Below are positions 36,493 through 61,932 of a stretch of 64,000 nucleotides of DNA, in pieces. The stretch is from a bacterium. GTDB lineage: Bacteria > UBA8248. The stretch covers positions 1,312,001-1,376,000 of the forward strand of contig OZ241996.1 of NCBI GenBank assembly GCA_965204535.1, written 5' to 3'. Positions within the stretch are counted from its first letter, which is position 1; each line of letters starts with the position of its first letter. A program made the translations under genes and the position numbers. The notes under the pieces were generated by a model. The model was not told the DNA's origin. It saw nothing but the letters and a program-made list of their open reading frames with translations, and did no database searches.

Positions 36493-36493
36493 A

Positions 36494-37537: not shown

Positions 37538-37795
37538 TTATTTCGAAGAGGCCGCATGAACCCGCTTGGCCAATCTTCCCGCGTGTCTCGACGCTGTTTT
37601 TTTGTGGATAATTCCTTTGGTGGCTGCGCGATCCAATTGCGACTGGGCTTTTCTCAGCAACTCTTCGGGGTTTTCTTCGCTATTCGCCAGGACTTGTTTG
37701 ATGGTATTGCGAAATTGAGTCCGAATAGCGCGGTTTCTGGCGCGGCGAACGATATTCTGGCGATTGCGCTTCTTGGCCGAACGAATATGTGGCAA
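37538..37795 (-). CDS. rpsT: 30S ribosomal protein S20
   Basis: PHIRSAKKRNRQ...LDRAATKGIIHKKTASR. Confidence 0.96.
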   Translation of the reverse strand: MPHIRSAKKRNRQNIVRRARNRAIRTQFRNTIKQVLANSEENPEELLRKAQSQLDRAATKGIIHKKTASRHAGRLAKRVHAASSK

Positions 37796-37858
37796 TTTGT
37801 TTCATTCTCCGTAAAGATGGTTGAAATGTCTCTCTTGAGGCTGTTTCACAGCCCCGGT

Positions 37859-37886
37859 AAAATACCACGGAACAAAGGGTTGTCAA
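37859..37886 (-). promoter_or_regulatory. Putative sigma70 promoter of rpsT
   Basis: Minus strand TTGACA (37886-81), 16 nt, TGn-extended TATTTT (37864-59). Confidence 0.6.
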
Positions 37887-37913
37887 GCTCACCGCCCTGG
37901 TGTCAGGAACCCT

Positions 37914-41742: not shown

Positions 41743-44232
41743 GTGATCCATCGAGCCGGCGTCGGGAAAACTGCCGGAAAACCCAAAAACATCTTTTTGC
41801 GTCTACTGGCGTCGGCGAGACGGTCGCTCGTGGATTGCGCCCTGGCGTTTGCCAACACAAGGACATATCCATGGATTCTGGGCGGGACGCTCGCCGTTGT
41901 GCTCTCGTTTCTGCTCACAACCGATCTTTCGGCGCCACGTGTGTCTTTCGAGGTGGGCGACGTCGTTCCCAGGGACATTAAAGCTCCGCAAGATATGCGC
42001 GTGGTCGATCCCATCGCCACGAATGCGAAGCGCCAGGCAGCCAGAGAAAAAGTCCTGCCTCGTTACGATATTGATACCCAACTTTCACAAGTTGTCCTTA
42101 CCAGGTTGAATGGCGCATTTGAATCCATTCAACGGTCGGTAGACAAAGAACTTGAGAAAGTAAAAGCGGAGCAATTGAAGAAACGGGCCAAGCAGAAGAG
42201 CCGGACTATTTTCTCCGAGTCGGAAGCATATCAGGAAATGTACGCTACTCCCACATTCGTCAAGGCCGAGAGCGCCTTTCACAAGCTCGTGGGAGATAAG
42301 GTTCCGAAGGAATTGGCCGTTTGGTTGAGAAACGAGAGGTTCGCGAACTGGATTCGGGAAGATATCGCCAAATTGTTAAAGGCGGCGTATGCGCATCAAA
42401 TCGTGAGTGACAAGCAATTGTACGCCACCCATGCGGCGAAAGGGATTACGGCGCGTGACATTAGGACAGGGAATCGCGTTTCCGTCAGCCGGTCTATGAA
42501 TCCTCTGGAGCTAAGGCAGGTAGATACATTACTCAAACAAGAAGCTCGAAAAATACTTCCCCACCAAATGCCTCAGAAAGTCGGGGCTTTGCTAATTGCT
42601 CAAACCTTGAAAATGATTCGACCGACGCTGACATTCAACAACAGGGCGACACTTGAGAGCAGAGAAAAGGCCGCGGCCACGGTTCCACCTATCTCTGAAG
42701 TTCTCAAGCAAGGGGAAATGATCGTTCGCGAGGGAGAACGTTTGAGCGAAGGACAAATTGTAAAACTCAAGAGTTTGGAGAATATCCACCGACAAAGTCA
42801 TGTGATAGGCAATTTCACCGGCACTGCTTTGGTGGTTTTCATTCTGCTCATTCTGGCATGGATTTGTGTGCAGAAATACGATGTGAGTTTTTTGTCATCG
42901 CAAAAAAACGTCACACTTTTTGTAATACTGCTTCTGAGTCAAGCCGTTTTGCTGAAATTGGGCATTCTTTTTTCCGAAGTGTTGCATGAAACTTTCCGGG
43001 GAATCCCACTCCACTCGTTTTACTATGTCATTCCATTTTGCTCCGCTTCTCTTCTTGCAGCCGTTTTGCTGGGACGCTCATCGGCGGTGTTGATGGCGGT
43101 TTTCTCCGCCGTTCTGACTGGACTGATTTTGCCGAATCACATCAATTTCAGCATCGTCGCTCTCGGCGGCGGCGTGCTGGCGGCCATCCGATGGAAAGAA
43201 TATCGACGCAGGACTTCTGTGCTTATCGTGGCGTTCATCCTGGGTTTGTTGGGCGCTGCGCTCGCCCTGGGTTTCAATATGCAAGAGGGTTTCAGCGCCG
43301 CAATCATACAGTGGACGGATATTCCCATCGCCTTGCTCGGCGGTCTTTCGAACGTCATCATCGTCGCGGGGGCCATGCCCCTGCTCGAGTCGATTTTCAA
43401 ACTCACGACCGATATGCGTCTTCTGGAGTTGGCCGACCAGAATCACCCACTATTGAGAAAGATGGTCGTCGGCGCGCCGGGCACCTATCACCACAGCCTT
43501 CTCGTCGGCAACCTGGCGGAGGAGGCGTCCGAGGCGATCGGCGCGAATCCGCTTCTGACCCGTGTAGGAGCGTATTTCCACGATATCGGCAAGATGATGA
43601 AACCGGAATATTTCATCGAAAATCAGGGTCGGGAAAACCGTCACGATAGACTGAAGCCCAACATGAGCGCGCTCATCCTGATCAGCCATGTAAAAGAGGG
43701 GGTAGAACTTGCCAAAAGCCATCAACTGCCCAAAGAGATTATCGATTTGATTCAGCAACACCATGGCACATCCTTGATTCGATTTTTTTACGAGAAAGCG
43801 AAGAAGCAAAATGGGGATGGCGCGACAGAAGAGTTTTTCCGCTATCCGGGGCCAAGACCTCAGACGAGAGAAGCGGGCATCCTGATGTTGGCTGATATGG
43901 TGGAAGCATCGTCGCACTCGCTTTCGGATCATTCTCATGGGCGCCTCACCGCTTTGGTAGATAGAATTGTCCAGAGTGCTTTTGCGGAGGGACAATTGGA
44001 CAATTGCAGTCTCACGCTCAGGGATTTGAGCAACATTCAGGACGCCTTCATGCGCGTTTTGGTTGGTATTCATCATCACCGGATTCATTATCCAGGGCAG
44101 GAAGACGCTCCTAAGAAAGGAGCTGCGAATGGAAGTCCTCATCAAAAACCAGCAAAAGCTGTTCGCGCTGGATCACAAAGCGCTGAAGCAACGTTTGGAA
44201 GTCATACGGAAAGCTCTCCGGTCCGGAGATGA
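41743..44232 (+). CDS. 7TM-HD family phosphohydrolase (PgpH/YqfF-like, HDIG domain)
   Basis: Extracellular domain, 7 TM segments, APGTYHHS, YFHDIGK, FIENQ, QHHGT, RYPGPRPQ, MLAD. Confidence 0.92.
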   Translation: MIHRAGVGKTAGKPKNIFLRLLASARRSLVDCALAFANTRTYPWILGGTLAVVLSFLLTTDLSAPRVSFEVGDVVPRDIKAPQDMRVVDPIATNAKRQAAREKVLPRYDIDTQLSQVVLTRLNGAFESIQRSVDKELEKVKAEQLKKRAKQKSRTIFSESEAYQEMYATPTFVKAESAFHKLVGDKVPKELAVWLRNERFANWIREDIAKLLKAAYAHQIVSDKQLYATHAAKGITARDIRTGNRVSVSRSMNPLELRQVDTLLKQEARKILPHQMPQKVGALLIAQTLKMIRPTLTFNNRATLESREKAAATVPPISEVLKQGEMIVREGERLSEGQIVKLKSLENIHRQSHVIGNFTGTALVVFILLILAWICVQKYDVSFLSSQKNVTLFVILLLSQAVLLKLGILFSEVLHETFRGIPLHSFYYVIPFCSASLLAAVLLGRSSAVLMAVFSAVLTGLILPNHINFSIVALGGGVLAAIRWKEYRRRTSVLIVAFILGLLGAALALGFNMQEGFSAAIIQWTDIPIALLGGLSNVIIVAGAMPLLESIFKLTTDMRLLELADQNHPLLRKMVVGAPGTYHHSLLVGNLAEEASEAIGANPLLTRVGAYFHDIGKMMKPEYFIENQGRENRHDRLKPNMSALILISHVKEGVELAKSHQLPKEIIDLIQQHHGTSLIRFFYEKAKKQNGDGATEEFFRYPGPRPQTREAGILMLADMVEASSHSLSDHSHGRLTALVDRIVQSAFAEGQLDNCSLTLRDLSNIQDAFMRVLVGIHHHRIHYPGQEDAPKKGAANGSPHQKPAKAVRAGSQSAEATFGSHTESSPVRR

Positions 44233-44611
44233 CGGGTTCAGCGTCATATTTATTCGAGACGAGGAGATGCGAGCGTTAAATTCGCGATATCGGCGGGAAG
44301 ATAAAACAACGGATGTCTTGGCTTTTCCGCCAGCTGATTTCTTTCCGTTCGTGGGTGAACAAAAAGGGGAAGAAACATTTTTAGGAGAAGTGGTCATCTG
44401 CGTGGATGAGGTGCTTCGCCAGGCGGAGGCCGAGGCAGTGGATTACGGAGTCTTGGCGGAGCGTCTGCTCGTACATGGCCTTCTACACCTCAAGGGGTAT
44501 GACCATTACACGGAGTCTGAATCTGCGCGCATGGGTGAGGAAGAAAAAAGAATAGCTTTTTTGCTTGACGGAGAGTGGCTCTATCGAGAAAGGCGTGAAA
44601 ATTTCGAATAG
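44129..44611 (+). CDS. ybeY: rRNA maturation RNase YbeY
   Basis: LNSRYR..DKTTDVLAF, LGEVVIC, HGLLHLKGYDH; ATG 44129 with AAGGAG SD. Confidence 0.94.
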   Translation: MEVLIKNQQKLFALDHKALKQRLEVIRKALRSGDDGFSVIFIRDEEMRALNSRYRREDKTTDVLAFPPADFFPFVGEQKGEETFLGEVVICVDEVLRQAEAEAVDYGVLAERLLVHGLLHLKGYDHYTESESARMGEEEKRIAFLLDGEWLYRERRENFE

Positions 44612-44792
44612 ATAATTGTGGGTGCCATGACACAGGAATTTTGAGTCAATTGCACATTGTTTCTCGTTGGAGAGAACTTAATCTCTTGCCCATTCTCATT
44701 GGCGTGAGGGTGATTTCTGGGAATTTAGAAACGGCCTGCAATCAAATCCGCCCCGATTTTGAAATCTGAAACCTGATGGACTTGGTAGTGAT

Positions 44793-45191
44793 ATGGGTAG
44801 CCTTCGACTCATCATCGGCTTGATTTTGGCATTGGCGATATCGAGCTTCGGTGTCATCAACATGAAGCCGGTGACCGTTGCCTATTATCAGGGCAGCGTC
44901 AACTTGCCTCTTTTTTATGTTCTGTTGGCTGTGTTTGTATGCGGTTTCATGGTGGCATGGTTTGGCGGGGCATTGGACAGATTGAAGTTCAGGAGTCAGA
45001 TAGGAAAATTAAAGCGGGAAGTCAAGACGTTAGAGAATAATCTGGATGAGGTGCGTGAGCAAAGCGGCAAGCTTCTTACCATGGGAAATACGCAAATCGA
45101 TGAATCCGTTGCCGCACGTGATGAACCCACGTCAAAAACGGATTCGAAGTCTCAGATCAGTCTATCCCCCCGCGAATCGAAGGCGGAATAG
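44793..45191 (+). CDS. lapA: LapA family (DUF1049) lipopolysaccharide assembly protein
   Basis: TM1-FGVINMKPVTV-loop-LPL-TM2 followed by a coiled coil (LKREVKTLENNL). Confidence 0.75.
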   Translation: MGSLRLIIGLILALAISSFGVINMKPVTVAYYQGSVNLPLFYVLLAVFVCGFMVAWFGGALDRLKFRSQIGKLKREVKTLENNLDEVREQSGKLLTMGNTQIDESVAARDEPTSKTDSKSQISLSPRESKAE

Positions 45192-45193
45192 GT

Positions 45194-47878
45194 ATGTCCT
45201 CTCCTAAAGGCGCCCTGCAAGCCAAGAAAGAAAAAAATACATCCGGCAAAAGTAGCCCTGGCCCTTCTCCTGCGATGCGCCAATATCTGGAAATGAAAAG
45301 ACGCTATCCGGACGCGATACTGTTTTTCCAGTTGGGTGATTTTTTCGAAATGTTCTATGAAGACGCGAAACTCGGGGCGAAAGTGTTGGAACTCGCGTTA
45401 ACGTCGCGCCAGAGTGATGACAAGGGACCTATCCCGATGTGTGGTGTGCCTTGCCATTCGGCCTCTTCATACTGTGGGCGATTGCTGGAAGCGGGCTATA
45501 AAGTCGCCATATGTGAGCAGGTGGAAGACGCAAGAGAAAGTAAGGGAGTTGTAAAACGTGAGGTAACTCGCGTCCTGACCCCAGGCACTTCGATTGCCGA
45601 CCTAGAGTTACTTGATAGCAAGGAATCTCAATACTTGGCGGGGATCACCGTATCGGCCAGAGAAGGAGAGACGCTTTGGGGAATGGCATGGCTCGATAGT
45701 TCGACCGGTGAGTTTTGTGCAACGCAGGTGGAAGGCGATTCTGCCGAGACGCTGATTTGCAATCAATTGGAGAGGCTCTCTCCTCGTGAACTTATTTTCC
45801 CAGATGCATTTTCCCCTCCAGATGGGTTGAAAAACAAAATTGATGAGCTAAGCATTCATATTGAAAAAAGACCGGACGCCACTTTTTGCGAGTCACTTGA
45901 TGCCAAAAGCCTGGGTTCCACATTTGCGGATGAAGCGAATGTTCTGGCGTATCCGGTAGCAGCAGATTCCGCCGTAGGTGTTTTAACGTATCTCAAAGAA
46001 AACCAGCCTGGAGATTTTCCCCATCTCAAGCCTGTCTTTTTCTCTAGACTCTCAGACTCCATGATTCTCGATACAGCCACGTTGCGAAATTTAGAAATTA
46101 CCCGTCCGGCAGTGGATCGGGGGAAACGGGGCACTCTGTTCGGTTTGCTGGATGAAACGTCAACGGGTATGGGGGGACGGCTGCTGAAAAAATGGGTGCT
46201 TTCACCCTTGATTCAAAAAAAAGCCATCGAATATCGCGCCGAATCAGTAGAAGAACTCGTGAACAATTCCGAAATCCTGAATAGACTCAAAAAAGCCCTT
46301 GAACCTATTCAAGATATCGAGCGGCTTCTGGGACGCGTGGGTTCTCAGACTGCGAATGCCCGAGATATAGCTGGACTAGGCGGATCTTTGGCCATGTTGC
46401 CGGAAGTTTGTGAGGCGCTCGAAGGGATGGCTTCTGAATTGTTTTGTTCCGTCCGGTCGGGCTGGGATTCACTCGAGGACGTAGCGTTGGAACTGAAGAA
46501 CGCGATTGTAGATGATCCGCCTGTTTCCATTCGAGAAGGTGGAATATTTCGAACTGATTATGACCCGGTACTTGCCCGCCTGAGAAAGGCGCAGCAGGAG
46601 GGTGATTCGTGGCTCAAGAATTATGAAAGCAGGGAAAAAGAACGAACGGGGCTGTCTCTGAAAATCGGGTTCAACCGCGTTTTTGGATATTATCTGGAGA
46701 TTCCCAAACGCTTCAGTGAGCAGGCACCGATGGAATATACGCGCAAGCAAACCCTCGTTTCTGCCGAGCGATACATTACTTCCGAGTTGAAAAAGATGGA
46801 AGAAGACCTACTCGGCGCGGAGGAAAAAGCCCATCACCTCGAGTTCATGCTTTTCGGGCGCTTAAGAACGCAAATATCTCAACACGCCAAGCGAATACTT
46901 GCCGCCGCCGAGAGGATAGCGATTCTGGATGCCGTTTTGTCCCTTGCGCTCGTTGCGCGCAAATTCGGATATGTCAGACCCCGAATTATGGATTCTACCG
47001 ATCTGGAAATCATGGAGGGGAGGCATCCCGTCATAGAGGCGGAGAATCCTGGCCTCTCTTTCGTGCCGAACGATTTGTCGATCCGTGACGACCGCCGAAT
47101 ACTCATTATCACAGGGCCGAATATGGCCGGTAAATCCACTTACCTGCGTCAAACGGCACTCATCATTCTAATGGCGCAGATTGGCAGTTTCGTACCAGCC
47201 AAGAGCGCGAAAATCGGTTTGGTTGACAGGGTGTTCACTCGCGTTGGTGCGCATGACCGACTTTTGGAGGGGCAAAGCACCTTCATGGTGGAGATGGTGG
47301 AAACGGCCACCATATTAAGAGAGTCGACCCAGAGGAGTTTCATCGTCCTGGACGAGGTCGGGCGAGGTACGAGTACCTATGATGGCGTCAGCATTGCATG
47401 GTCAATTGTTGAGTATCTTCATAACAAGGTCCAGCACAGGGCGAGGACTTTGTTTGCGACTCATTATCATGAGTTGGCCGAACTCTCAAAAGAGCTCGCT
47501 TGCGTGAAAAACTTGACGGTCGAGGTCCGGGAGTGGGGTGATGAAATCGTTTTCTTGCGAAAAGTAACCGATGGCAGTTGCGATAGAAGCTACGGCATTC
47601 AGGTAGGCAGGCTGGCGGGACTTCCGGAAGAGGTTATCGACCGAGCAAAGACGTTGCTCTCTCGGTTTGAGAGTACGGAGACGACCTCTCGTTCCAGCGA
47701 CGAAAAATCTAATTTGGAAAATCGCTGGGGCAATGGGCAATTGCCTTTGTTTTCAGGAACAGAATCGAAAATCGAAAATTTGTTGAAAAGCATCGATCCG
47801 GATTCCATGACACCTCGTCAAGCTCTCGAAACCCTGTATGAACTCAGGGAAATCATGGCAAATGTTGAGCAGCGATAA
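45194..47878 (+). CDS. mutS: DNA mismatch repair protein MutS
   Basis: MRQYL, GDFFEMF, PMCGVP, TGPNMAGKSTY, STFMVEM, DEVGRGTST, FATHYHEL, SYGIQV. Confidence 0.97.
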   Translation: MSSPKGALQAKKEKNTSGKSSPGPSPAMRQYLEMKRRYPDAILFFQLGDFFEMFYEDAKLGAKVLELALTSRQSDDKGPIPMCGVPCHSASSYCGRLLEAGYKVAICEQVEDARESKGVVKREVTRVLTPGTSIADLELLDSKESQYLAGITVSAREGETLWGMAWLDSSTGEFCATQVEGDSAETLICNQLERLSPRELIFPDAFSPPDGLKNKIDELSIHIEKRPDATFCESLDAKSLGSTFADEANVLAYPVAADSAVGVLTYLKENQPGDFPHLKPVFFSRLSDSMILDTATLRNLEITRPAVDRGKRGTLFGLLDETSTGMGGRLLKKWVLSPLIQKKAIEYRAESVEELVNNSEILNRLKKALEPIQDIERLLGRVGSQTANARDIAGLGGSLAMLPEVCEALEGMASELFCSVRSGWDSLEDVALELKNAIVDDPPVSIREGGIFRTDYDPVLARLRKAQQEGDSWLKNYESREKERTGLSLKIGFNRVFGYYLEIPKRFSEQAPMEYTRKQTLVSAERYITSELKKMEEDLLGAEEKAHHLEFMLFGRLRTQISQHAKRILAAAERIAILDAVLSLALVARKFGYVRPRIMDSTDLEIMEGRHPVIEAENPGLSFVPNDLSIRDDRRILIITGPNMAGKSTYLRQTALIILMAQIGSFVPAKSAKIGLVDRVFTRVGAHDRLLEGQSTFMVEMVETATILRESTQRSFIVLDEVGRGTSTYDGVSIAWSIVEYLHNKVQHRARTLFATHYHELAELSKELACVKNLTVEVREWGDEIVFLRKVTDGSCDRSYGIQVGRLAGLPEEVIDRAKTLLSRFESTETTSRSSDEKSNLENRWGNGQLPLFSGTESKIENLLKSIDPDSMTPRQALETLYELREIMANVEQR

Positions 47879-48005
47879 CAGCAGGGCCAGGTCACAGCGC
47901 ATAATCCGGAAGTGCTCCACGGACATGAAGCCACGGAAGTCAAACAAGGTATTGAGAGCTTTTTTTATATGCGATAGCATTGAATTTCAAGGCCAAGGGG
48001 AGCAT

Positions 48006-48611
48006 ATGTTATCTAACGCCCGGAAAACATTTGTTCTTAGGAAACTTGCCATAGCCATCTGTATGATTTTCGCTTTGGCGGGGCCGGCGATTTCCGCAAC
48101 AGATAGCCAAGATGGAATTCGGATAAAAGATATTATTGTTATCAAGAAGAATGGGCAGTTGCTTGTTTTTGGTTCTCTTTTGGGTGCATTTTCGACGAAA
48201 TTGTTGGAAGCTATTCATAGCGGTGTGACTACGAAGTTTATTTTTGACGTAAGTCTCTTTCGCTCTCGCAAGCTGATTTATGATTTGGAAGTCACCTCGC
48301 GGCAATTACATCACCAAGTGAAATATAGCGCCTTGAAAAAAACATACACTTTTCATCTCAAAGAAGGGGAAAAAGAGATCGAGAGAAAAGTGACGAAAAG
48401 CCAAGGCGAAATGACGGACTGGATGCGCGAGCTGAATGGCGCGCCCATTGCCCCTGGCAAGGTCTTGCCCCCAAATAGTCGATACTATGTCAAAATCAGA
48501 GCGCGGATGAATCATGTGGATTTTGTTTTTCCCTTTAATTACTTGCTTGCTTTTTGGGGGAAGCAGTCTGATTGGAGCTATTCCCAGACATTTAGTTCTG
48601 AAGGAATGTGA
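48006..48611 (+). CDS. Secreted/periplasmic protein, probably DUF4390 family (NtrZ-like partner of NtrYX)
   Basis: Signal peptide, LLEAIHSGV..F.F.V.L motif, position directly upstream of ntrY; start ATG 48006 with GGGGAG SD. Confidence 0.7.
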   Translation: MLSNARKTFVLRKLAIAICMIFALAGPAISATDSQDGIRIKDIIVIKKNGQLLVFGSLLGAFSTKLLEAIHSGVTTKFIFDVSLFRSRKLIYDLEVTSRQLHHQVKYSALKKTYTFHLKEGEKEIERKVTKSQGEMTDWMRELNGAPIAPGKVLPPNSRYYVKIRARMNHVDFVFPFNYLLAFWGKQSDWSYSQTFSSEGM

Positions 48612-48614
48612 ACT

Positions 48615-50876
48615 GTGCATCCAACGCGACTGAATCAGGAGATCTCTTCGCGCCGACGAAGAACACTTCTGCGATCCTTCATCGCTTTGATCATCATTGC
48701 GACTCTTTCGTTTACGGCTTGGATTTACTTCAAAGAGCTTGAGCCGGAAGTCCCACTGTTAAACAATGTTGTCGTATTTGCGCTAGTGAATCTGAGCATC
48801 ATTTTGCTCATGGTGGTTATTCTCCTGGTAGCAAAGCACTTGGTGCGTCTTTACTACGAGGGGAGAACGGGTGCCGGTCGTTCACGCTTGCAATTAAAAC
48901 TCGTATTGGCGTTTGTCGGATTTACGCTCATCCCTGTAGTGGCTCTTTTCGTGGTGGCCAGCGGTTTGATTAACCAAAGTTTTAATGCTTTGTTCAACAT
49001 GAACGTGGAGAGAGCGCTCAAAGGCTCTTTCGAAGTGGCTCAAACGTATTATCGCGAGGTGGAGCGAAACACGCTGTTCAGCGCGAGTCGCCTTGCGCTG
49101 ACGTTGGAGAAGACACGACCTAATATAATAACGAACTCCAAGGCGGCTGAAAAAACATTGGAGGCCGAGAGAAAGAACTTGGGGGTGGATTTCATCCAAC
49201 TCTACGATAGGGAGCGGAAGGAGATCGTATCGGTCAGGCGCCCGGGGTTGGCGCAAGCCACAACGTTTTCGCCACTGGTGGGATACGTAGATCAAGTGAT
49301 TGATGGGGAGTCGCGCTCAAGTATAGAGAATTGGGAAAAAGGAGATGTCATCTATGGCGTGGCGCCTTTGAAGAGTCAAAAAAAAGTGGTGGGGTTTATC
49401 GTCGTATCCAAATACGTGCCTGATCGACTTGTGGCGAAGATCAGAGGCATATCGGACTCCTTTGTGAACTATAAAGAGTTGGAACTGTCCAAGAATCCAA
49501 TCAAAGCAAACTACATCATTACTTTCTTGGTGGTTACTTTGCTCATTCTCTTTGCGGCCATCTGGTTCGGCTTCTACCTCGCTCGAGGGATTACGGTTCC
49601 CATCGAGAAATTGGCGGAAGCTACAAGGGCGGTGTCGGATGGCAACCTCGAACATCGCGTGGATGCGCAGGCAGATGGCGAAGTGGGGATTTTGGTCAAC
49701 GCATTTAACAGCATGACGGAAGAATTGTTGGCCAACAAGGAAAAAATCGAAGAATCTTCTGAAATCTTGAGCCGTTCCAACCTGGAAATCGACAGAAGAC
49801 GCAGGTATATGGAAGCGATGCTTGAAAATATCGGAGCGGGTGTAATATCAATCAATCGCCGAGGGCGCGTTACTATCCTCAACAAAGCAGCCGGGGAGTT
49901 GCTGAGGATTGAACCGCAGAATGCCGTAGGGCAAATGTTCAGCGAGGTTTTCGAAAGCACACATCTTGAGCCTGTTCGTCAGTTGATGCGCTCTATGCGA
50001 GCCCGAGAACACCAAAGCGCTTCGGAGCAAGTGGAGGTCATGATTGATGGCCGTGTGCTGACACTACGCGCGAGCTTGACTCTGCTGAAGAGCGCAGATG
50101 GCGGCAGACTTGGTGCCGTCATTGTGTTTGATGACATGACGGCTTTGATACGGGCTCAAAAAGTGGCCGCATGGCAGGAAGTGGCCCGTGGCATCGCGCA
50201 CGAGATCAAAAATCCACTTACGCCGATTCAACTTTCTGCTCAGAGAATGAGACGAAAATTTGATAATGAGGCCTATGATTTTACCGAAGTATTTGAATCT
50301 TGCACGGATACTATTATCAATCAGGTAACAAGCCTGATTGATATGGTGGATGAATTCAGCCGATTCGCTCGCATGCCGGAGCCGAGATTGAGGCTCTGCG
50401 GGTTTGTCCCCCTCATTGAGGATGTTGCAAATTTATATCGTGGCAGGAAGGGGGATGTGAAATTTTCGATTCATATCGATGTTGGGAATACTGCTGTCAT
50501 GGCGGATCCCGAGCAGTTGCAGCGCGTGTTTATCAATTTGTTGGAAAATGCCTTTGAATCCCACGATGTCGAGGGCGAGATTGATTTGCAAGCGTGGAGT
50601 GATAAAGACAGAAATATGATAGTTGTTGAAGTGGCCGACCAGGGGCAAGGTATATCGGAAGATGTGAAAGGCCATATATTCTCGCCTTACTTTTCGACAA
50701 AGGATAGAGGCACCGGGTTGGGTTTGGCTATATGTCAGCGCATTGTGGCGGATCACAATGGAACAATAGGCGTGCGAGATAACCATCCGTCTGGTTCCAT
50801 TTTTCGCGTAACATTGCCACTGGCGCCTGCTGTGGACATCACGCCCGAAAAGCAAAGGACGGCTTCCATTGGATAA
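48615..50876 (+). CDS. ntrY: NtrY-type sensor histidine kinase (TM, HAMP, PAS, HisKA, HATPase)
   Basis: AWQEVARGIAHEIKNPLTPIQLSAQR (NtrY H-box), NLLENA, DQGQG, PYFSTKDRGTGLGL. Confidence 0.92.
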   Translation: MHPTRLNQEISSRRRRTLLRSFIALIIIATLSFTAWIYFKELEPEVPLLNNVVVFALVNLSIILLMVVILLVAKHLVRLYYEGRTGAGRSRLQLKLVLAFVGFTLIPVVALFVVASGLINQSFNALFNMNVERALKGSFEVAQTYYREVERNTLFSASRLALTLEKTRPNIITNSKAAEKTLEAERKNLGVDFIQLYDRERKEIVSVRRPGLAQATTFSPLVGYVDQVIDGESRSSIENWEKGDVIYGVAPLKSQKKVVGFIVVSKYVPDRLVAKIRGISDSFVNYKELELSKNPIKANYIITFLVVTLLILFAAIWFGFYLARGITVPIEKLAEATRAVSDGNLEHRVDAQADGEVGILVNAFNSMTEELLANKEKIEESSEILSRSNLEIDRRRRYMEAMLENIGAGVISINRRGRVTILNKAAGELLRIEPQNAVGQMFSEVFESTHLEPVRQLMRSMRAREHQSASEQVEVMIDGRVLTLRASLTLLKSADGGRLGAVIVFDDMTALIRAQKVAAWQEVARGIAHEIKNPLTPIQLSAQRMRRKFDNEAYDFTEVFESCTDTIINQVTSLIDMVDEFSRFARMPEPRLRLCGFVPLIEDVANLYRGRKGDVKFSIHIDVGNTAVMADPEQLQRVFINLLENAFESHDVEGEIDLQAWSDKDRNMIVVEVADQGQGISEDVKGHIFSPYFSTKDRGTGLGLAICQRIVADHNGTIGVRDNHPSGSIFRVTLPLAPAVDITPEKQRTASIG

Positions 50877-53001
50877 GGGACATGTGCTTATCGTCGATGA
50901 TGAGCGTGAAATACTCGTGAGCCTGGAAGATGTCTTGCTGGATGAAGGGTATCGCGTAGAACGGGCCGAGTCCGGAGAAACTGCTCTTCAGTTGGTCCGG
51001 ACCGAAGCTCCCGATGTGGTTCTGGTTGATGTGTGGATGCCCGGCATTGATGGAATCAAAACTTTACAAGCAGTGAAAGAGTCCAACGCAGATATCGAAG
51101 TCGTCCTGATGTCGGGCCACGGCAATATTGAGACCGCAGTGGCCGCAACAAAGTCAGGAGCTTTTAATTTCATTGAAAAACCTCTATCCATTGATACGGT
51201 TTTGCGCATAGTCGATTCCGCCGTTCAAGCGCGAAGGGCCAAGGATATTAAGGCGAATAATGTTGGCGACGTGATACTTGACGGTGCCAGCAAGCATGTT
51301 CAGAGGGTTCGAAGAGCAATCAGGAGAGCGGCGAAAGATATTGGGCCCTTGCTGATCGCAGGTGAAAGGGGAACCGGCAAGCGTTTTATCGCAAGGGCGA
51401 TCCACGAGAACGGCGCCGGAAAAGAAGAAGGCTTTCGGCCTGTTCATTGCCGTTCGCTGTTTCCAATGGCGGAGATATGCGAATGGGAAGATGCCCTGGA
51501 GCGGCTGGTGCCCGATACCTTTCAAGGGACTATATATCTGGATGGTCTGGAACAGTTGCCCATAGCGGAGCGTGGAAAATTTCTTGTTCAATTTCTTGAG
51601 CGCATAGAGGATTCAAAGCGTTTAATCGTATCCGTTGATTACATAGGAACTCCAAAGGATAAGGCTTACGTGGAAGCCTTATCTGATAAAATTGGCGCGG
51701 ATGTAATACACTTGCCCCCTTTGCGCGAACGCAAAGGGGATATTTTGCCGTTAGCAAACAGATTCTTGAGTGAATGCGTTGAAGTTGGCGGGCATGAAAA
51801 GGAATTTCCTGAGGATGTCATTGCGGTTCTGGAGGACTATGACTGGCCGGGCAATATTGCTGAATTAAAAGGTGCAGTGACCAAAGCGGCATCCACATCG
51901 CAAGGATCGGAGATTCACATCGACCACTTGCCGGACACGATACGCGAGGCTTCTGATTTCGAGGTGAGCACATCAAAAAACGATACCCCGTCCAATTTTA
52001 ATGTGGCCAGAACGCAGTGGGAGAGACAGTACCTTGCCTTCCATTTGGAGGAGCACGGTTGGGACATCAATAAGACCGCCAAGGCGGTGGGCATGACGAA
52101 ACCTGCTTTAATGCGAAAAATTAAAACATACAATATAGAACCCATATTGCCGGCGTCGACGACGCTAAGGGAATCAAATCAGAGGAGCATTTCGAAAAGT
52201 GTCGTATTGTATGGCCGGGGGCTTCACTCAGGGCTGAAAACCGGATTGATCATCGAGCCTCTGCCACCGGGGAGCGGGATACAATTCGGCAACCTGACAA
52301 GCCCCGATACTGTGAGGGCGAGTGTCGATTTCGTGGATGGCACCAACCATGCGACAAACTTGCGCAATGGGACTGTGACTGCTCGAACAATTGAGCATCT
52401 CATGAGCGCGCTGCACGCATATAAGATAAGCAATATACTCATCAAAATGAGTGAGGAAGTGCCCGTCATGGATGGGTCGGCAGTGGAGTTTTGTCTCTTG
52501 CTTGAAGAAGCAGGCATTGAAGATCAGGAAGAAAAACGCGAGGACTTGTGGATTGATAAGGTATATGAGGTAGGTGAACCGAATGACGGAAAGGGCTACG
52601 TTCGTATCGAGCCGGCGGATTCTTTTTCGGTTTCATACCTTATTGATTATCCTAAACCGATTGGGAAGCAAACCTACGTGTATGAGCACAAGAATGCATT
52701 GGGTTTTCAGGAAGAAATCGCACCGGCCCGTACTTTTGGTTTTGTCAATGAGTTGGAGTCGCTCGAAAAAATGGGCTTGGCCGAGGGAGGTCGTTGGGAT
52801 AACGTGATTCTCGTGGACAAAGCACGCGTTGTGAATACCCGATTGCGATTTCCCAATGAGTTCGTTCGCCATAAAATTCTTGACGTGATCGGAGATCTGT
52901 ATTTAACCGGTCGTCCCGTCCGAGGAAAAGTAACCGCTGAGAGAAGTGGACACCGACATAATGTAGCTTTGGTCAAGAAATTGATGGAAGTCCATGGCTG
53001 A
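50869..53001 (+). CDS. lpxC: Fusion: NtrX-like response regulator (REC-AAA-HTH) + UDP-3-O-acyl-N-acetylglucosamine deacetylase LpxC
   Basis: N-term VDD...VDVWMP...SGHGNIETAV...FIEKP; GERGTGK; LPPLRER; WPGNIAEL; Fis HTH. From ~52177: QRSI...GRGLHSG, TIEHLMSAL, EVPVMDGSA, IAPARTFGF, EFVRHKILDVIGDL, SGH. Confidence 0.92.
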   Translation: MDKGHVLIVDDEREILVSLEDVLLDEGYRVERAESGETALQLVRTEAPDVVLVDVWMPGIDGIKTLQAVKESNADIEVVLMSGHGNIETAVAATKSGAFNFIEKPLSIDTVLRIVDSAVQARRAKDIKANNVGDVILDGASKHVQRVRRAIRRAAKDIGPLLIAGERGTGKRFIARAIHENGAGKEEGFRPVHCRSLFPMAEICEWEDALERLVPDTFQGTIYLDGLEQLPIAERGKFLVQFLERIEDSKRLIVSVDYIGTPKDKAYVEALSDKIGADVIHLPPLRERKGDILPLANRFLSECVEVGGHEKEFPEDVIAVLEDYDWPGNIAELKGAVTKAASTSQGSEIHIDHLPDTIREASDFEVSTSKNDTPSNFNVARTQWERQYLAFHLEEHGWDINKTAKAVGMTKPALMRKIKTYNIEPILPASTTLRESNQRSISKSVVLYGRGLHSGLKTGLIIEPLPPGSGIQFGNLTSPDTVRASVDFVDGTNHATNLRNGTVTARTIEHLMSALHAYKISNILIKMSEEVPVMDGSAVEFCLLLEEAGIEDQEEKREDLWIDKVYEVGEPNDGKGYVRIEPADSFSVSYLIDYPKPIGKQTYVYEHKNALGFQEEIAPARTFGFVNELESLEKMGLAEGGRWDNVILVDKARVVNTRLRFPNEFVRHKILDVIGDLYLTGRPVRGKVTAERSGHRHNVALVKKLMEVHG

Positions 53002-53052
53002 TTTTGGGTACATCCCGAACGATTCCGCCTGCTAAATCATGGAACATCACTT

Positions 53053-54108
53053 TTGAATGAGGATTGTCTGACATACCGCGACGCGGGCGTCGATATCGAG
53101 TTGGGCGAGGGTTTCGTTCAGGCTATCGCCCAAATTGTAAAATCCACCCATTCTAGCCAAAGTGGCCGTATTCTGAAGGGGACGACGGATTTTGCAGGTT
53201 TGTTCCGTCTGGGCGGGGAATATGAAGATCCTGTACTTGTTTCAGGGACCGACGGTGTCGGCACGAAATTGCTCTTGGCCCAAGAGTTCGAGCGTCATGA
53301 TTCCATAGGGGTCGACTTGGTGGCCATGTGCGTCAACGATATCCTAGCCATGGGCGCAGAACCGCTTTTTTTTCTTGACTACATTGCGACGGGCAAGATT
53401 GATCAGAGCGTATTGAAGACAGTCGTATCCGGGATTGCGCGAGGATGCCGGGAAGCAGGATGCGCCCTCCTCGGGGGTGAGACCGCCGAGATGCCTGATA
53501 TGTATAAGTCGGGCGTGTATGATCTCGCCGGATTCGCCGTGGGAGTGGTTGAGCGTGGAAACCTCGACAATAGAACGCCTGTAAAAGCAGGTGATGTTAT
53601 TGTAGCTCTTCCTTCTTCAGGAATTCATAGCAACGGATATTCTTTGGTGCGAAAAATATTTGATTCAAAAGAAACACGGGATGCGGCGGCGCAAAAGCTA
53701 GGTGCTCTCATTGAAGATGTTTTATTGGAGCCGACCCGGATTTACGCCAAAGGGGTCCATTCCGTTCGAAGAGAAGAGGGAATTAGCGGCATCGCGCACA
53801 TCACTGGAGGTGGAATTCCGGGAAACGTAAACCGTGTCATGCCAGATGAATTGCAGGCTAAATTTTATCCTGAAAAATGGGTGGCGCCCGAGATATTCTC
53901 ATTGATCCAAGAATTCGGCCCGGTTGAGAGCGCGGAGATGTATCATACTTTCAACATGGGCTTGGGTTTTGTCTTTCTCGTGAGATCGGAGCGAGCCGAG
54001 TCTTTGCTTGGATGTTTGAAAAATGCGGGAGAACAAGCCATGGTTGTTGGCGAAGTCGCCAATAAACCGAAGGGCGGCCAATCCGTCGTCATTGAGGGCG
54101 TATTTTAG
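53053..54108 (+). CDS. purM: Phosphoribosylformylglycinamidine cyclo-ligase
   Basis: TYRDAGVDI, GTDGVGTK, DLVAMCVND, GGETAEMP, SSGIHSNGYS, TFNMG. Confidence 0.97.
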   Translation: MNEDCLTYRDAGVDIELGEGFVQAIAQIVKSTHSSQSGRILKGTTDFAGLFRLGGEYEDPVLVSGTDGVGTKLLLAQEFERHDSIGVDLVAMCVNDILAMGAEPLFFLDYIATGKIDQSVLKTVVSGIARGCREAGCALLGGETAEMPDMYKSGVYDLAGFAVGVVERGNLDNRTPVKAGDVIVALPSSGIHSNGYSLVRKIFDSKETRDAAAQKLGALIEDVLLEPTRIYAKGVHSVRREEGISGIAHITGGGIPGNVNRVMPDELQAKFYPEKWVAPEIFSLIQEFGPVESAEMYHTFNMGLGFVFLVRSERAESLLGCLKNAGEQAMVVGEVANKPKGGQSVVIEGVF

Positions 54109-54761
54109 TGCATTCAGGAACACGATTACGTGTGGGTGTTTTGGCTTCGGGTCGTGGGTCCAACTTGCAAGCTCTTATTGATGCCGCGCGGAACGCGAAT
54201 TTCCCGGCGGAAGTTGTATTGGTGCTGAGCGACAAAAAAAATGCGTATGCGCTCAAGCGCGCCTCGATGGCCGGCATACGGGCTAGGCATCTGGCGCCGA
54301 AGGAGGAGGGTTTTTATCGGAAGATGGGCGATGAGATTGAAAATTACGGAATCGATCTCGTCTGTTGCGCTGGTTTCATGCGCATTTTACCGCCGGAGTT
54401 TGTCAACCGTTTCTCAGGAAGAATCATCAACATTCATCCCTCGCTTCTGCCGAGTTTCCCTGGTCTGCATGCACAAAGAAAAGCCTTGGATACCGGTGTG
54501 AGAGTGACCGGCTGCACGGTCCACTTTGTGGACGAGGGGGTGGATACGGGACCGATTATTTTGCAAGCTGCCGTACCGGTTCTGCCCCGTGACGATGAAG
54601 AAACCCTTTCGGAGAGGATTCTCGCTTATGAGCACCGCATCTACCCACTGGCGGTGCGACTCATCGCCGAGGGGAGCGTTCGTTGGGTTGATGGTGTTGC
54701 GGAATACATGGGCGACGCTTTTCTGGATGGCGGAGGTTTCATCTCACCTGTTTCGGAGTAG
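54108..54761 (+). CDS. purN: Phosphoribosylglycinamide formyltransferase
   Basis: LASGRGSNLQA, AGFMRIL, NIHPSLLP, GCTVHFV, DTGPII. Confidence 0.97.
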   Translation: MHSGTRLRVGVLASGRGSNLQALIDAARNANFPAEVVLVLSDKKNAYALKRASMAGIRARHLAPKEEGFYRKMGDEIENYGIDLVCCAGFMRILPPEFVNRFSGRIINIHPSLLPSFPGLHAQRKALDTGVRVTGCTVHFVDEGVDTGPIILQAAVPVLPRDDEETLSERILAYEHRIYPLAVRLIAEGSVRWVDGVAEYMGDAFLDGGGFISPVSE

Positions 54762-54786
54762 TCATTCATAAAGGATTACAAGAGTT

Positions 54787-55515
54787 TTGCGCAAATTGAG
54801 TTTTTTCATACTGGTATTCGGTTTTTCGTTTTTCGCATTTTTGCAAGAGTACGCTCTCGCCGCGTCTATGGCGGAAGAATCGCGTCCAAAGGCGGAGAAA
54901 ATAATCACCGAACTTCAGAAAAAATATGACACACTTGAATCTCTGCAAGCCTCATTCGAGCAGAAAAATGAATTGAAGTCCCTCGGGCGAACGACGACGT
55001 CGAGCGGAACCCTGTTGTGGAAGAAGCCCGGCAGACTCCGCATGGAGTACGTTACGCCTGAAAAGCAACTCCTGGTTTCCGATGGCCACACGTTTTGGCT
55101 CTACACCGCTCGCTTCAAGCAGGTGATGGTTTCCAAAACCGGGGGCTTTGGGTTTGGCGCCACTCCTTTGTTATTTTTGTCAGGAAAGGGGAATTTGAAA
55201 AAGAATTTTCATGTAACTGTGGAAGAGGTTGGAATTGCCGAACGAAGCGGGGGGATTTGGAGGGCCGGTCAGCCCCATCGCATTCGCATGGAGCCGAAGG
55301 CTGCGAGCGCTTCGTTTCGCCGAATGTGGATCGAAGTGGAGCCTGAAAATTTCAGGATCCTCACTCTGGTTTATATTGATAACATCGGCAACAAGAGCCA
55401 TCTGCGGTTTTCAAATATCAAAGAAAACGTCAGAATCACAAGAGAGGAATTTCGATTTATCGTGCCGCCGAACGTCGAAGTTCTGCAAATGCCGTCTCAC
55501 AGTGGCCAGCGATAA
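54787..55515 (+). CDS. lolA: Outer membrane lipoprotein carrier LolA family
   Basis: Signal peptide, ASFEQ, SGTL..KKPGRLRMEY..PEKQLLVSDG..FWLY. Confidence 0.9.
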   Translation: MRKLSFFILVFGFSFFAFLQEYALAASMAEESRPKAEKIITELQKKYDTLESLQASFEQKNELKSLGRTTTSSGTLLWKKPGRLRMEYVTPEKQLLVSDGHTFWLYTARFKQVMVSKTGGFGFGATPLLFLSGKGNLKKNFHVTVEEVGIAERSGGIWRAGQPHRIRMEPKAASASFRRMWIEVEPENFRILTLVYIDNIGNKSHLRFSNIKENVRITREEFRFIVPPNVEVLQMPSHSGQR

Positions 55516-55530
55516 AGGATTCTTTTGAAA

Positions 55531-56730
55531 ATGGCGATGCAAGTCATAAACTGGGTGATGGGTTTTGGGCAGACGATTTTCTGGGCTGTGCTGGTTCTCG
55601 GATTGCTCATCTTTATCCATGAACTGGGCCACCATCTCGTCGCGAAATGGCTCAAAATCGGCGTTTCCACGTTTTCCTTGGGTTTCGGGTGCCGCATCTG
55701 GGGTTTTCAGCGGGGAGAGACTGAATATCGCGTGTCCCTGATCCCTTTGGGCGGTTATGTGAAGCTCGTGGGGGAAGACCCCGAAGCACAACCTGATAAT
55801 CCCGATATTCCCAAAGAACCGGATGAGCCGGAGAAATCATTCTACTTGCGGCCTGTGAGTCACCGATTGGCTGTGATTTCGGCGGGGCCTTTGTTTAATG
55901 TCGCCTTGGCGATACTCCTCAGTTGGGGGTTGCACCTTGGAGGTATTCCCGTCCCTGGAACGTGGGTCGGCGGTGTTTTGCCCGATACGCCTGCACAAAA
56001 GGCGACCCTTCAAGCAGGCGATCACATCGTTGCCATCGATGGGAAGAGGATTCAGAAATGGTCCGAGCTTGTCGAAATTATACGAAGAAACGCCGATAAT
56101 AAACTCGTTTTGACGGTGGAACGCGGCCGCAAATCCTTTGAAACGTCGATCATTCCGACATCGAAGAGTGCGACGGGCAAGGAGTTGGGTTATGGCCGAA
56201 TCGGTATCAGTATCGGTCAAGGCACTTACACCGAGCGTTTTGGCTTTTTTGAGTCCCTGGGGAAGGGATTCGAACAGAATTACCGCATCGCCAGCTTAAC
56301 GGTCATTACGCTGTATTCGATGCTCACGAAGACCATTCCGGCGGACATTGGCGGCCCGATTCGTATTTCTGTGGTGGCCGCGGAGCAGGCGCAACGCGGG
56401 TTCCGCTATCTCATCATGTTTACGATTTTACTCAGCATTAACCTGGCGATTTTGAACTTGTTGCCAATCCCGGTTCTCGATGGCGGGCATATTTTTTTCT
56501 TGCTTATCGAAGCCTTGCGTGGCAAACCTATCAGCCTCAGGGTCCGAGAGGTGGCCATGCAGGTCGGCACCGTTCTTCTCATCGGTTTGATGATCTTTGC
56601 TACCTACAAGGACAGCGTGTATTATCTTTTTGGGAGGGACTCGGCAACGATAACGAAAAAAGAAGAGCAAAAGGGAAAAAGTAGGGATACAATGAAATTA
56701 TCTCCTGAAAGCCAGAAAGGCGGCAAATAG
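55531..56730 (+). CDS. rseP: RIP metalloprotease RseP
   Basis: IHELGH, PLGGYVK, AGPLFN, PDZ domain, NLLPIPVLDGGH. Confidence 0.95.
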   Translation: MAMQVINWVMGFGQTIFWAVLVLGLLIFIHELGHHLVAKWLKIGVSTFSLGFGCRIWGFQRGETEYRVSLIPLGGYVKLVGEDPEAQPDNPDIPKEPDEPEKSFYLRPVSHRLAVISAGPLFNVALAILLSWGLHLGGIPVPGTWVGGVLPDTPAQKATLQAGDHIVAIDGKRIQKWSELVEIIRRNADNKLVLTVERGRKSFETSIIPTSKSATGKELGYGRIGISIGQGTYTERFGFFESLGKGFEQNYRIASLTVITLYSMLTKTIPADIGGPIRISVVAAEQAQRGFRYLIMFTILLSINLAILNLLPIPVLDGGHIFFLLIEALRGKPISLRVREVAMQVGTVLLIGLMIFATYKDSVYYLFGRDSATITKKEEQKGKSRDTMKLSPESQKGGK

Positions 56731-60352: not shown

Positions 60353-61840
60353 ATGACCTCGGACACCTCGCAAACAAATCCACTTAAAATAAAAAAACGA
60401 TTTGAAGCCAAGGTGAGAAAAGGCCTCCAGAAATCGGCTTATGCGGCCGAGTCTGCCCCTTTGATGGTCGGTTTTTCCGGTGGCGCAGATTCCACGGCTC
60501 TTTTGTTGTCCTTGAAGTCGATCCTGCCGGAATCACAACTCCTGTGTGCCGTTCATATCGAACATGGACTCCGTGGCGGTCTTTCAAAAAAAGATGCTGA
60601 GCATGCTGAGCAGGTGTGTTTGCGACACGATATCGATTTTCGTTGTGAGCACGTTCATGTGTCTCGAACAGCGCAATTGGGTCTTGAAGGAGCTGCCCGC
60701 GAATCAAGGCGCTCGGCCTTCCTGACGATTGCGAAGGAGATGGGCGCTGATACCATCGCGTTGGCCCACAACAGGGATGATCAAGCCGAAACCGTGCTCA
60801 TGCGTTTATTTGAAGGGGCAGGCGTCAGGGGGATGGGAGGTATGAAGTGGAGGACCCCGCTTTCGTCGAAAGGAGAAGATGCGTTCCACATCATCCGGCC
60901 TTTACTGGATTTGTCGCGTGAGGAGATTTTGGAGTACTTGGAGATACTGGGCATCTCCTGGGTCGAGGATGAAACGAATCTGGACGAGAGTCGCCTCAGA
61001 AATCGGATACGCAAAAAAATTATGCCGATGGTTCGGGAGCACTTGGGGGATGCGGCCATTAGCGGAATCGCCAAGAGTGCGGAGATATCGGCCCCGCTTG
61101 TTTTCCTGATGGATGAAATGTCCAAGGAATTGACGGTGAAATTCATCCATAAAGACAACGGGAAACTCGTTGTTTCTCCTTTAGGGGCAGTGAAGGAACT
61201 CGCTCAATCGCTTAGAGCGGAGGTTTGGCGTGCGGCACTTGCAATGCTCAGAGGCGAATCGCCCGCCCAAACCGGCAGACGCGCTCTCCGGGAATGGATT
61301 GAAGGCCTGGATCGCCTGGCAATGGGAGATAAACCCTCGGGTGTGTTGAGTTTGCCGGGCGGCCTGGAAGCGAGAAAGGAATATGACCGCCTTATCTTCG
61401 GGAGTTCCCTTGTTGATTCGAAGTTGCTTGAGGAGAAAAAACTGCGGGTTCCAGGAAAGACGGTTCATCATTCACTAGGCCTTGCGATAGAAGCATCATG
61501 TCATTTTACACATCGTTCAAACGGCGCATGGGAGGTGTGTCTCGACCTGGAAAAGCTGGGGGCGGATGCCTGTATCCGAACCCGGCGTGATGGAGATCGG
61601 TTCCATCCATTGGGACGAACAAAAGCGAAGAAACTCAAGGATTACCTCATAAAGCGGAAAATACCGAAATCCGTAAGGAATCGAATACCTCTCCTGGCCG
61701 TAGGAGGTAAGGTGGCATGGATCATAGGTCATCAGGTTTCAGCGGAATTCGTGCTTGATGGGAATGAGAAGAGGGGGGTTACCCTTAAAGCGTTGCTGGA
61801 GAATGAAGACAGTAAGCTCTTAAGTTCTTTGGGTTATTGA
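60353..61840 (+). CDS. tilS: tRNA(Ile)-lysidine synthetase
   Basis: SGGADS PP-loop, HGLR, AHNRDDQAETVLMRL, IRPLL, DETN, RNRIR, C-terminal KKLKDYLI..KIP. Confidence 0.95.
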   Translation: MTSDTSQTNPLKIKKRFEAKVRKGLQKSAYAAESAPLMVGFSGGADSTALLLSLKSILPESQLLCAVHIEHGLRGGLSKKDAEHAEQVCLRHDIDFRCEHVHVSRTAQLGLEGAARESRRSAFLTIAKEMGADTIALAHNRDDQAETVLMRLFEGAGVRGMGGMKWRTPLSSKGEDAFHIIRPLLDLSREEILEYLEILGISWVEDETNLDESRLRNRIRKKIMPMVREHLGDAAISGIAKSAEISAPLVFLMDEMSKELTVKFIHKDNGKLVVSPLGAVKELAQSLRAEVWRAALAMLRGESPAQTGRRALREWIEGLDRLAMGDKPSGVLSLPGGLEARKEYDRLIFGSSLVDSKLLEEKKLRVPGKTVHHSLGLAIEASCHFTHRSNGAWEVCLDLEKLGADACIRTRRDGDRFHPLGRTKAKKLKDYLIKRKIPKSVRNRIPLLAVGGKVAWIIGHQVSAEFVLDGNEKRGVTLKALLENEDSKLLSSLGY

Positions 61841-61932
61841 TTTGGAGTTTAGCTCGTAGACGGATGGGAAAAATCCTGATAACGTGTTTTCAGGGTTTAG
61901 AGAGCCGCTTACGCGAGAAAAAGGAAGGCATT

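Follow-up and report, generated by a model that had tools for sequence, protein, structure and literature searches.

Why should LpxC, the enzyme that commits cells to lipid A, is rate-setting for outer-membrane synthesis, and serves as an antibiotic target, be encoded at the end of a response regulator gene? The question is raised by a 64,000-nucleotide stretch of a UBA8248 bacterial genome (contig OZ241996.1 of assembly GCA_965204535.1, positions 1,312,001 to 1,376,000; hereafter the window, numbered 1-64000), in which a single reading frame downstream of an NtrY-type sensor kinase gene begins as an NtrX-like regulator and ends as LpxC. We find that this fusion is real and widespread and apparently undescribed. 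On balance, and with some reserve, comparison of sequences makes it probable that a transcriptional switch of lpxC was here turned into a post-translational phospho-control of the fused LpxC.

The fusion gene and its LpxC domain

The fusion gene starts with TTG, is open throughout its 710 codons with no stop, and overlaps the stop of ntrY (TAA, 50874-50876) by 8 nt, in line with the initial annotation, which also described one chain of receiver, AAA, helix-turn-helix (HTH), linker, and LpxC. All of these domains were matched in Pfam: Response_reg (residues 6-114; 98.5 bits), Sigma54_activ_2 (139-285; a weak 40.4 bits) followed by AAA_lid_14 (286-365), HTH_8 (383-421; marginal at 23.4 bits against a cut-off of 22), and LpxC (PF03331; 438-706; 277.7 bits, covering model positions 1-267 of 268). 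The receiver-AAA+-Fis HTH order of NtrX is thereby present. TIGR00325 (lpxC) is matched with 240.7 bits, above its cut-off of 187.25. NtrX is the best-scoring regulator model in NCBIfam, yet NF051870 reaches only 248.2 bits against an equivalog cut-off of 600; among solved structures, residues 5-421 are closest to the NtrX structure 5m7n (E 1.2e-51). The phospho-Asp of the receiver is D54 (51028-51030). A full LpxC had been placed from about 52177; the domain is indeed complete, and its Pfam-based start is Q438, at 52180.

Single contigs from three of four sequencing runs (X4, X8, and X9, from three studies) cross the junction at 52100-52200, and no indel occurs there among the contig pieces listed; the X6 pieces listed do not bridge it. 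Those runs containing the gene that name a habitat are sponge metagenomes, and there is no RNA dataset among the runs listed. Near homologues of the protein carry the labels Nitrospinae (84-88% identity) and Tectomicrobia (57%), so that the host probably belongs to this group and is an uncultured bacterium living with sponges. The frame, the family models, and the junction-crossing contigs confirm the NtrX-LpxC fusion as a genuine gene.

The fused copy is the only LpxC match in the host genome, which was searched for a second, stand-alone lpxC and contains none; lpxA, lpxB, lpxD, lpxK, fabZ, and a kdtA-like gene are located elsewhere. The LpxC-FabZ model NF009667 matches the LpxC part only, fabZ being a separate gene. 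Retention of the catalytic and zinc residues had been claimed, and E509, H510, H668, K669, D672, and H695 are invariant in all 108 full-length homologues and align with solved LpxC structures; we take the EH, the HKxxD, and the late His to be the zinc ligands and catalytic residues. The predicted model of the fusion protein has a mean pLDDT of 87.8, and its LpxC part fits solved LpxC mostly with 1.2-2.5 Å rmsd (2jt2 at 1.4 Å; Foldseek E 1e-31). From these features the fused domain is predicted to be the cell's working LpxC, with deacetylase function.

Neither a Shine-Dalgarno sequence nor an ATG had been seen within the frame. No Shine-Dalgarno match was indeed found, but an in-frame TTG occurs once, at codon 427. 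A start codon at most 15 codons from the LpxC start occurs in 26 of 60 fused genes and is absent from the other 34, compared with 20/20 stand-alone lpxC genes; it is accompanied by a Shine-Dalgarno match in 3/60 and 9/20, respectively. By this codon comparison, an internal LpxC start is not conserved in the fusions.

Distribution, divergence, and origin of the fusion

Searching for the same architecture across genomes recovered the fusion throughout the host phylum and in other phyla. LpxC is present in 50 of 51 host-phylum genomes (47 with one match, 3 with two pieces of one gene) and is fused in all 50, of which 47 were inspected and 3 were judged from 726-727-aa frames. Eleven of the 50 carry a short form in which the AAA+ and HTH domains are deleted and the receiver and ntrY are kept. 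A scan of species genomes, the counts from which represent a sample (at least 604 stretches, 79 loci kept), yielded at least 21 further fusion loci labelled Nitrospinota, Desulfomonile, Syntrophorhabdus, other Thermodesulfobacteriota, Deltaproteobacteria, Holophagales, and Bdellovibrionota, and one fusion protein is labelled Spirochaetota; these taxon names are depositors' labels on assembled genomes and are possibly wrong. Among 20 fusion genomes of other phyla, the fused copy is the sole LpxC match in 19 (the 20th has an extra 56-aa fragment), full-length NtrY is present in 18, and inspection of the neighbourhood (about 1.5 kb) revealed no receiver gene where ntrY sits apart from the fusion. 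Fusion and ntrY are separate, with no regulator beside ntrY, in Nitrospinota-labelled genomes and in genome G036 (loci L135, L137, L138, L139, L035, L036, L040, and L126). A 3163-base contig (L033) from a genome labelled as an archaeon carries a full fusion that groups with the bacterial ones and is probably misbinned. When a short-form profile was used as the query, the top 150 clusters at 50% identity comprised 49 receiver-LpxC proteins (many of them fragments), 9 full fusions, 6 without the HTH, 2 of receiver-HTH-LpxC type, 7 fragments lacking the N terminus, 53 with LpxC only, and 24 with a receiver only.

The fused domains have diverged to very different degrees. Among 20 members of the host genus (114-150 of 190 pairs per domain after dS filtering), dN/dS is 0.050 for the receiver and 0.053 for LpxC, as against 0.19 for the AAA+ domain and 0.13 for the HTH. 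Mean identities of receiver and AAA+ are 0.60 and 0.60 in 58 unfused NtrX proteins versus 0.55 and 0.31 in 47 fused ones. A GAFTGA-like motif is found in 39/58 unfused NtrX and in 0/47 fused proteins, and it is absent from 108/108 full-length homologues; the Walker B Glu is kept in 56/58 unfused proteins and in 9/108 fused ones, and the fusion protein reads D225-G226 (YLDG) at this site. The sigma-54-type AAA domain of the initial annotation is therefore present, but in degenerate form. Walker A (GERGTGK, 165-171) and the arginine finger (R286 and R288) are kept, the Walker A Lys occurring in 107/108 homologues. The receiver residues D11, D54, S/T82, and K104 are intact in 46/47 long and 35/36 short fusions (81/83). 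Three receiver positions that hardly vary in unfused NtrX (E88, K110, and N117) are unconstrained in the fusions, a pattern that fits a lost coupling to the AAA+ domain.

In a tree of 27 rows from which the AAA+ and HTH columns were left out, the short form requires four origins within the host's family (4-4 over bootstraps), one origin alone being rejected (p-AU 2.9e-7). The last HTH helix is still present in one short-form case, and long forms without an HTH also exist. Given the decay of the AAA+ domain, the repeated loss of AAA+ and HTH, and the intact receiver, the conserved core is receiver, LpxC, and kinase rather than a transcription factor.

Fused LpxC domains also share a patch of residues. 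Position 446 (V446) is hydrophobic in 98-100% of fused versus 23% of stand-alone LpxC and position 461 (I461) in 86-91% versus 17%, and G459 and K526 are found in 83/84 and 82/84 fused LpxC. The patch is common to long and short fusions, occupies positions that are polar in stand-alone enzymes, and takes up every other residue along stretches of the predicted strands 445-451, 457-464, and 523-527; it is a candidate docking or dimer surface.

As to origin, in an LpxC tree of 149 rows a branch with SH-aLRT 96 separates 60 stand-alone enzymes from all 84 fusions, the latter grouped with 5 further stand-alone records. The tree is compatible with a single fusion origin but does not establish one; over its wider range, receiver-LpxC forms need at least 10 label changes. 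The receiver-only tree (118 columns) is poorly resolved, with seven changes among fused rows, so that support for a single origin comes from the LpxC tree alone. Among the matches listed, ntrY lies directly upstream in 48/58 unfused ntrX loci, and a separate lpxC is present in 24 of the 47 with at least 4.5 kb of upstream sequence, mostly in the order lpxC-(plrP)-ntrY-ntrX; the unfused loci were all caught by the receiver pattern and none by the LpxC pattern. A -24/-12 sigma-54 motif lies within 350 bases upstream of lpxC in 7/24 (strict) or 11/24 (relaxed) of these loci, compared with shuffle means of 0.54 and 2.1 (maxima, 4 and 7) and opposite-strand counts of 1 and 3, the motif counts including kin and so not being independent. 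All 11 lpxC genes with a relaxed motif adjoin an NtrX with an intact GAFTGA loop, and several Desulfobacterales-labelled unfused NtrX (L058-L087) have an altered loop and no sigma-54 motif before the adjacent lpxC. By analogy, the loci with an ntrYX-adjacent, sigma-54-preceded lpxC match the Desulfovibrio lpxC circuit described below. We infer from these comparisons that, before the fusion, a sigma-54 activator served a separate lpxC, and that its transcriptional output became dispensable once the two were joined. That such an activator absorbed its own target gene, and that lipid A control was the original task of NtrYX, is possible but slightly doubtful.

Proposed control of the fused LpxC

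Under the favoured phospho-control, NtrY, tuned by a periplasmic PlrP-like protein, would phosphorylate or dephosphorylate D54, and the state of D54 would set LpxC output in cis, directly instead of through transcription. The unphosphorylated receiver might hold LpxC down via the fusion-specific hydrophobic patch, predicted to be on the outer face of the first beta-sheet; alternatively, the receiver might set the oligomer state or turnover of the enzyme. Phosphorylation would then switch LpxC on and yield more lipid A, the sign being that of the ancestral circuit, since the ancestral regulator was presumably an activator. As the DNA-control parts were repeatedly lost while the receiver was kept, outer-membrane synthesis is likely switched at the enzyme. 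LpxC has been described as allosterically controllable by LapB and MurA (PMC11046580). A receiver-driven switch of LpxC had been proposed in the initial annotation, and the comparative evidence, namely a sole LpxC, intact phosphorylation residues, low receiver dN/dS, and repeated loss of AAA+ and HTH, supports it well, within the bounds of sequence comparison.

Several points weigh against this reading. The receiver is dead, with a changed phospho-Asp, in two fusions (P0144 and P0139), which constitute natural controls. Short-form linkers differ in length (about 22 to 69 residues) and show no conservation, as would suit a loose tether equally well, and the AAA+ and HTH domains of the host genus are under purifying selection. 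The patch may have been inherited within a single LpxC clade, and its exposure at the surface is deduced from strand alternation. The models have no fixed domain arrangement (pTM 0.51 for the fusion protein and 0.42 for its homologue P0063): interdomain packing was not seen in these two single-chain folds. Of the five stand-alone LpxC records within the fused clade, two look like N-terminal fragments and three may be reversions; P0190, P0180, and P0169, stand-alone enzymes nested among fusions, are possible reversions by receiver loss. In the assemblies L029 and L034 the frame shifts between receiver and LpxC, which may be an error or a real split. Finally, orthology to the Desulfovibrio regulator DVU2934 is putative, drawn from papers (PMC3333781) and gene order.

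Four other explanations were considered. The receiver could be a tether or phosphate sink that docks NtrY and holds LpxC at the inner membrane or feeds back on the kinase, leaving catalysis unchanged. The joint retention of receiver and NtrY and the variable linkers agree with this, and Neisseria Ght provides a case of LpxC recruitment to the membrane (PMC12444477); but no second NtrX-like regulator that could take such a signal was found in the host genome, and pure tethering would not obviously need all of the phosphorylation residues that 81 of 83 fusions keep. We consider tethering unlikely, though worth keeping in mind. Somewhat harder to credit is a bifunctional protein in which the receiver controls DNA binding by the HTH, while LpxC either works constitutively or informs the HTH of substrate level. 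The HTH does score above its Pfam cut-off with a dN/dS of 0.13, the Walker A Lys is nearly universal, 5m7n is the closest solved relative, and Brucella NtrX represses without GAFTGA (PMC6158489). Since AAA+ and HTH are under purifying selection in the genus, both may still act, and the long form may retain some DNA-binding or scaffolding role. Nevertheless, both domains were lost four times in the host's family and are missing from 11 of 50 phylum genomes that keep receiver and ntrY, long forms without an HTH occur, and no conserved palindrome was visible by eye upstream of the operon. A bifunctional protein leaves the short forms unexplained, although in the long form it may apply as an additional function. 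The feedback of LpxC on DNA binding that the initial annotation had suggested is disfavoured, because HTH and AAA+ were repeatedly deleted while the receiver stayed.

It is improbable that the fusion is a frozen rearrangement that couples expression only, with the receiver as a folding or solubility partner without signalling. An accidental joining is conceivable, given that unfused relatives carry lpxC next to ntrX; a single origin is compatible with the LpxC tree, and an essential C-terminal enzyme protects the reading frame. The frame of the AAA+ domain is protected too, yet this domain decays, whereas the receiver is as constrained as the enzyme, every deletion spares it, and the kinase is kept. 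We give practically no credence to an assembly artefact or to a separate LpxC product translated from an internal start. The in-frame TTG at codon 427 and the 26 fused genes with a start codon near LpxC would permit the latter, but the junction is spanned by contigs of three studies, dozens of genomes keep the frame open, and both nearby starts and Shine-Dalgarno matches are far rarer than in stand-alone lpxC genes.

Genomic setting and comparison with known systems

The fusion gene is the last of a plrP-ntrY-fusion series that follows mutS (Table 1). The first gene had been described as DUF4390-like, in agreement with its Pfam match, and its ATG aligns with starts in relatives. NtrY contains NtrY_N, HAMP, PAS, HisKA, and HATPase domains, hydrophobic segments at 17-121 and 295-328, and its H-box at 528-535; it is the only full-length NtrY of the host genome, the other kinases being 24-25% identical. 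A promoter and terminator scan of 44000-56000 gave nothing above chance, with 12 sigma-70-like promoter matches found versus 11.2 expected; judged by eye, no other part of the mutS-plrP gap is as well kept as the candidate in Table 1 in most relatives within the genus. The same inspection, of 32 upstream regions of which 2 could not be delimited, revealed no sigma-54 motif and no conserved palindrome in this gap.

Table 1. Features of the plrP-ntrY-fusion locus (window coordinates)
Feature	Position	Strand	Evidence
Sigma-70-like promoter candidate before plrP-ntrY-fusion	47952..47980	+	9/12 consensus match
plrP-like periplasmic protein (DUF4390), likely kinase modulator	48006..48611	+	PF14334, 92.4 bits; role by Bordetella PlrP
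NtrY-type membrane sensor kinase, 753 aa, H-box HEIKNP	48615..50876	+	Pfam
NtrX-LpxC fusion gene, 710 aa	50869..53001	+	ORF, Pfam/NCBIfam, junction-crossing contigs
Receiver domain; D10, D11, D54, S82, K104 intact	50884..51210	+	Pfam; dN/dS 0.050
Degenerate sigma-54-type AAA+; retains Walker A and LRER, lacks Walker B Glu and GAFTGA	51283..51963	+	dN/dS 0.19
Fis-type HTH, relaxed, purifying selection persists	52015..52131	+	Pfam; dN/dS 0.13; model helices 376-420
Short fast-evolving linker	52132..52179	+	dN/dS 0.60 (residues 424-435); pLDDT <50 at 427-432
Complete LpxC with catalytic and zinc residues and fusion-specific patch V446, G459, I461, K526	52180..52986	+	Family models, alignment, predicted fold

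A LapA-domain gene (44793-45191) lies directly before mutS, with no lapB adjoining. No LapB-like match in the host genome is better than E 8e-9. With a possible takeover of LapB's role by the fusion in view, LapB was also sought more widely: at E ≤1e-12 there is none in the host or in four of four genomes of its family, and matches occur in 10/26 fusion and 10/18 unfused genomes, all below the cut-off. The same housekeeping run (35956-39593, 54787-56730, and 61837-63852) contains further envelope genes, namely lptE, murJ, and lolA by Pfam, and rseP-like and ftsH-like genes as read from the sequence; the sigma-54 gene lies about 5 kb beyond the window end. G+C content declines from about 63% to 47-50% around 44-54 kb, gradually across ordinary housekeeping genes and with no sharp border. 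Elsewhere in the host genome, two contigs each carry a 455-aa frame with a receiver and an identical domain match (C1:218230-219594 and C2:31457-32821), a possible duplication or mobile copy.

A receiver-LpxC fusion is undescribed in the literature searched, a scope that excluded subscription journals and supplements, which agrees with the initial annotation's statement that no characterised example was known. PMC5007114 and 10.1101/2021.11.05.467447 are not about such a fusion; by term search, the terms "fusion," "fused," and "response regulator" are absent from a 2025 review (PMC12444477), and these terms and "receiver" are absent from a 2026 review (PMC13333357). In the reviews searched, LpxC is controlled by proteolysis, partner binding, or transcription, and direct phosphorelay would, if true, be a fourth mode. 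The series from separate genes with a sigma-54 promoter via the full fusion to receiver-LpxC would trace how a regulator passed from acting on transcription to acting after translation. Through the fusion, the signals sensed by NtrY and PlrP would also become readable from a single enzyme, and an allosteric surface of LpxC may come to light.

The kinase architecture, with its HEIKN box, is shared with the NtrY/NtrX systems of Alphaproteobacteria (Rhodobacter, Caulobacter, and Brucella) and with Bordetella PlrP/PlrS/PlrR (PMC7240162, PMC12444477, PMC6158489, PMC13001219), in which PlrP limits kinase phosphatase activity (PMC13001219). These systems also have in common with the fusion a receiver-AAA+-HTH regulator without GAFTGA, a DUF4390 gene in front, and a link to the envelope and to the level of lpxC. 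In contrast to the fusion, NtrX and PlrR are DNA-binding regulators of dozens of genes that act indirectly on lpxC, as in Rhodobacter (PMC7240162), and none is known to be fused to LpxC. The envelope link of alphaproteobacterial NtrYX, invoked as a precedent in the initial annotation, is thus an indirect one, and the closest precedent is provided by Desulfovibrio vulgaris, in which lpxC is the single target of DVU2934 (PMC3333781, PMC4045070). Loss of the kinase in D. alaskensis strongly raises only lpxC, from a sigma-54 promoter (PMC3333781, PMC4045070). DVU2931/DVU2934 and Dde_3000/Dde_3003 resemble the fusion locus as two-component systems dedicated to lpxC, and in S. fumaroxidans the orthologous operon is immediately preceded by lpxC, as noted above for 24/47 unfused loci. 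In Desulfovibrio, however, control is transcriptional and the proteins are separate, whereas the fusion is one chain that has lost the activator motifs. Control by LapB/FtsH and MurA (PMC11046580, PMC12444477) addresses the same step post-translationally, with partners that act in trans.

A natural LpxC fusion already known, LpxC-FabZ (NF009667), has the second enzyme at its C terminus, and the fusion described here is without FabZ. Response regulators with enzyme outputs, such as CheB, PleD/WspR, and RpfG, are likewise receivers joined to an enzyme with a cognate kinase as the switch; their outputs are signalling enzymes, unlike the essential biosynthetic enzyme found here, for which we found no counterpart as a response-regulator output in any paper of the literature searched. 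Enzyme-output response regulators and the two-component control of lpxC transcription in Desulfovibrio were thus already known; what is apparently new is the fusion itself.

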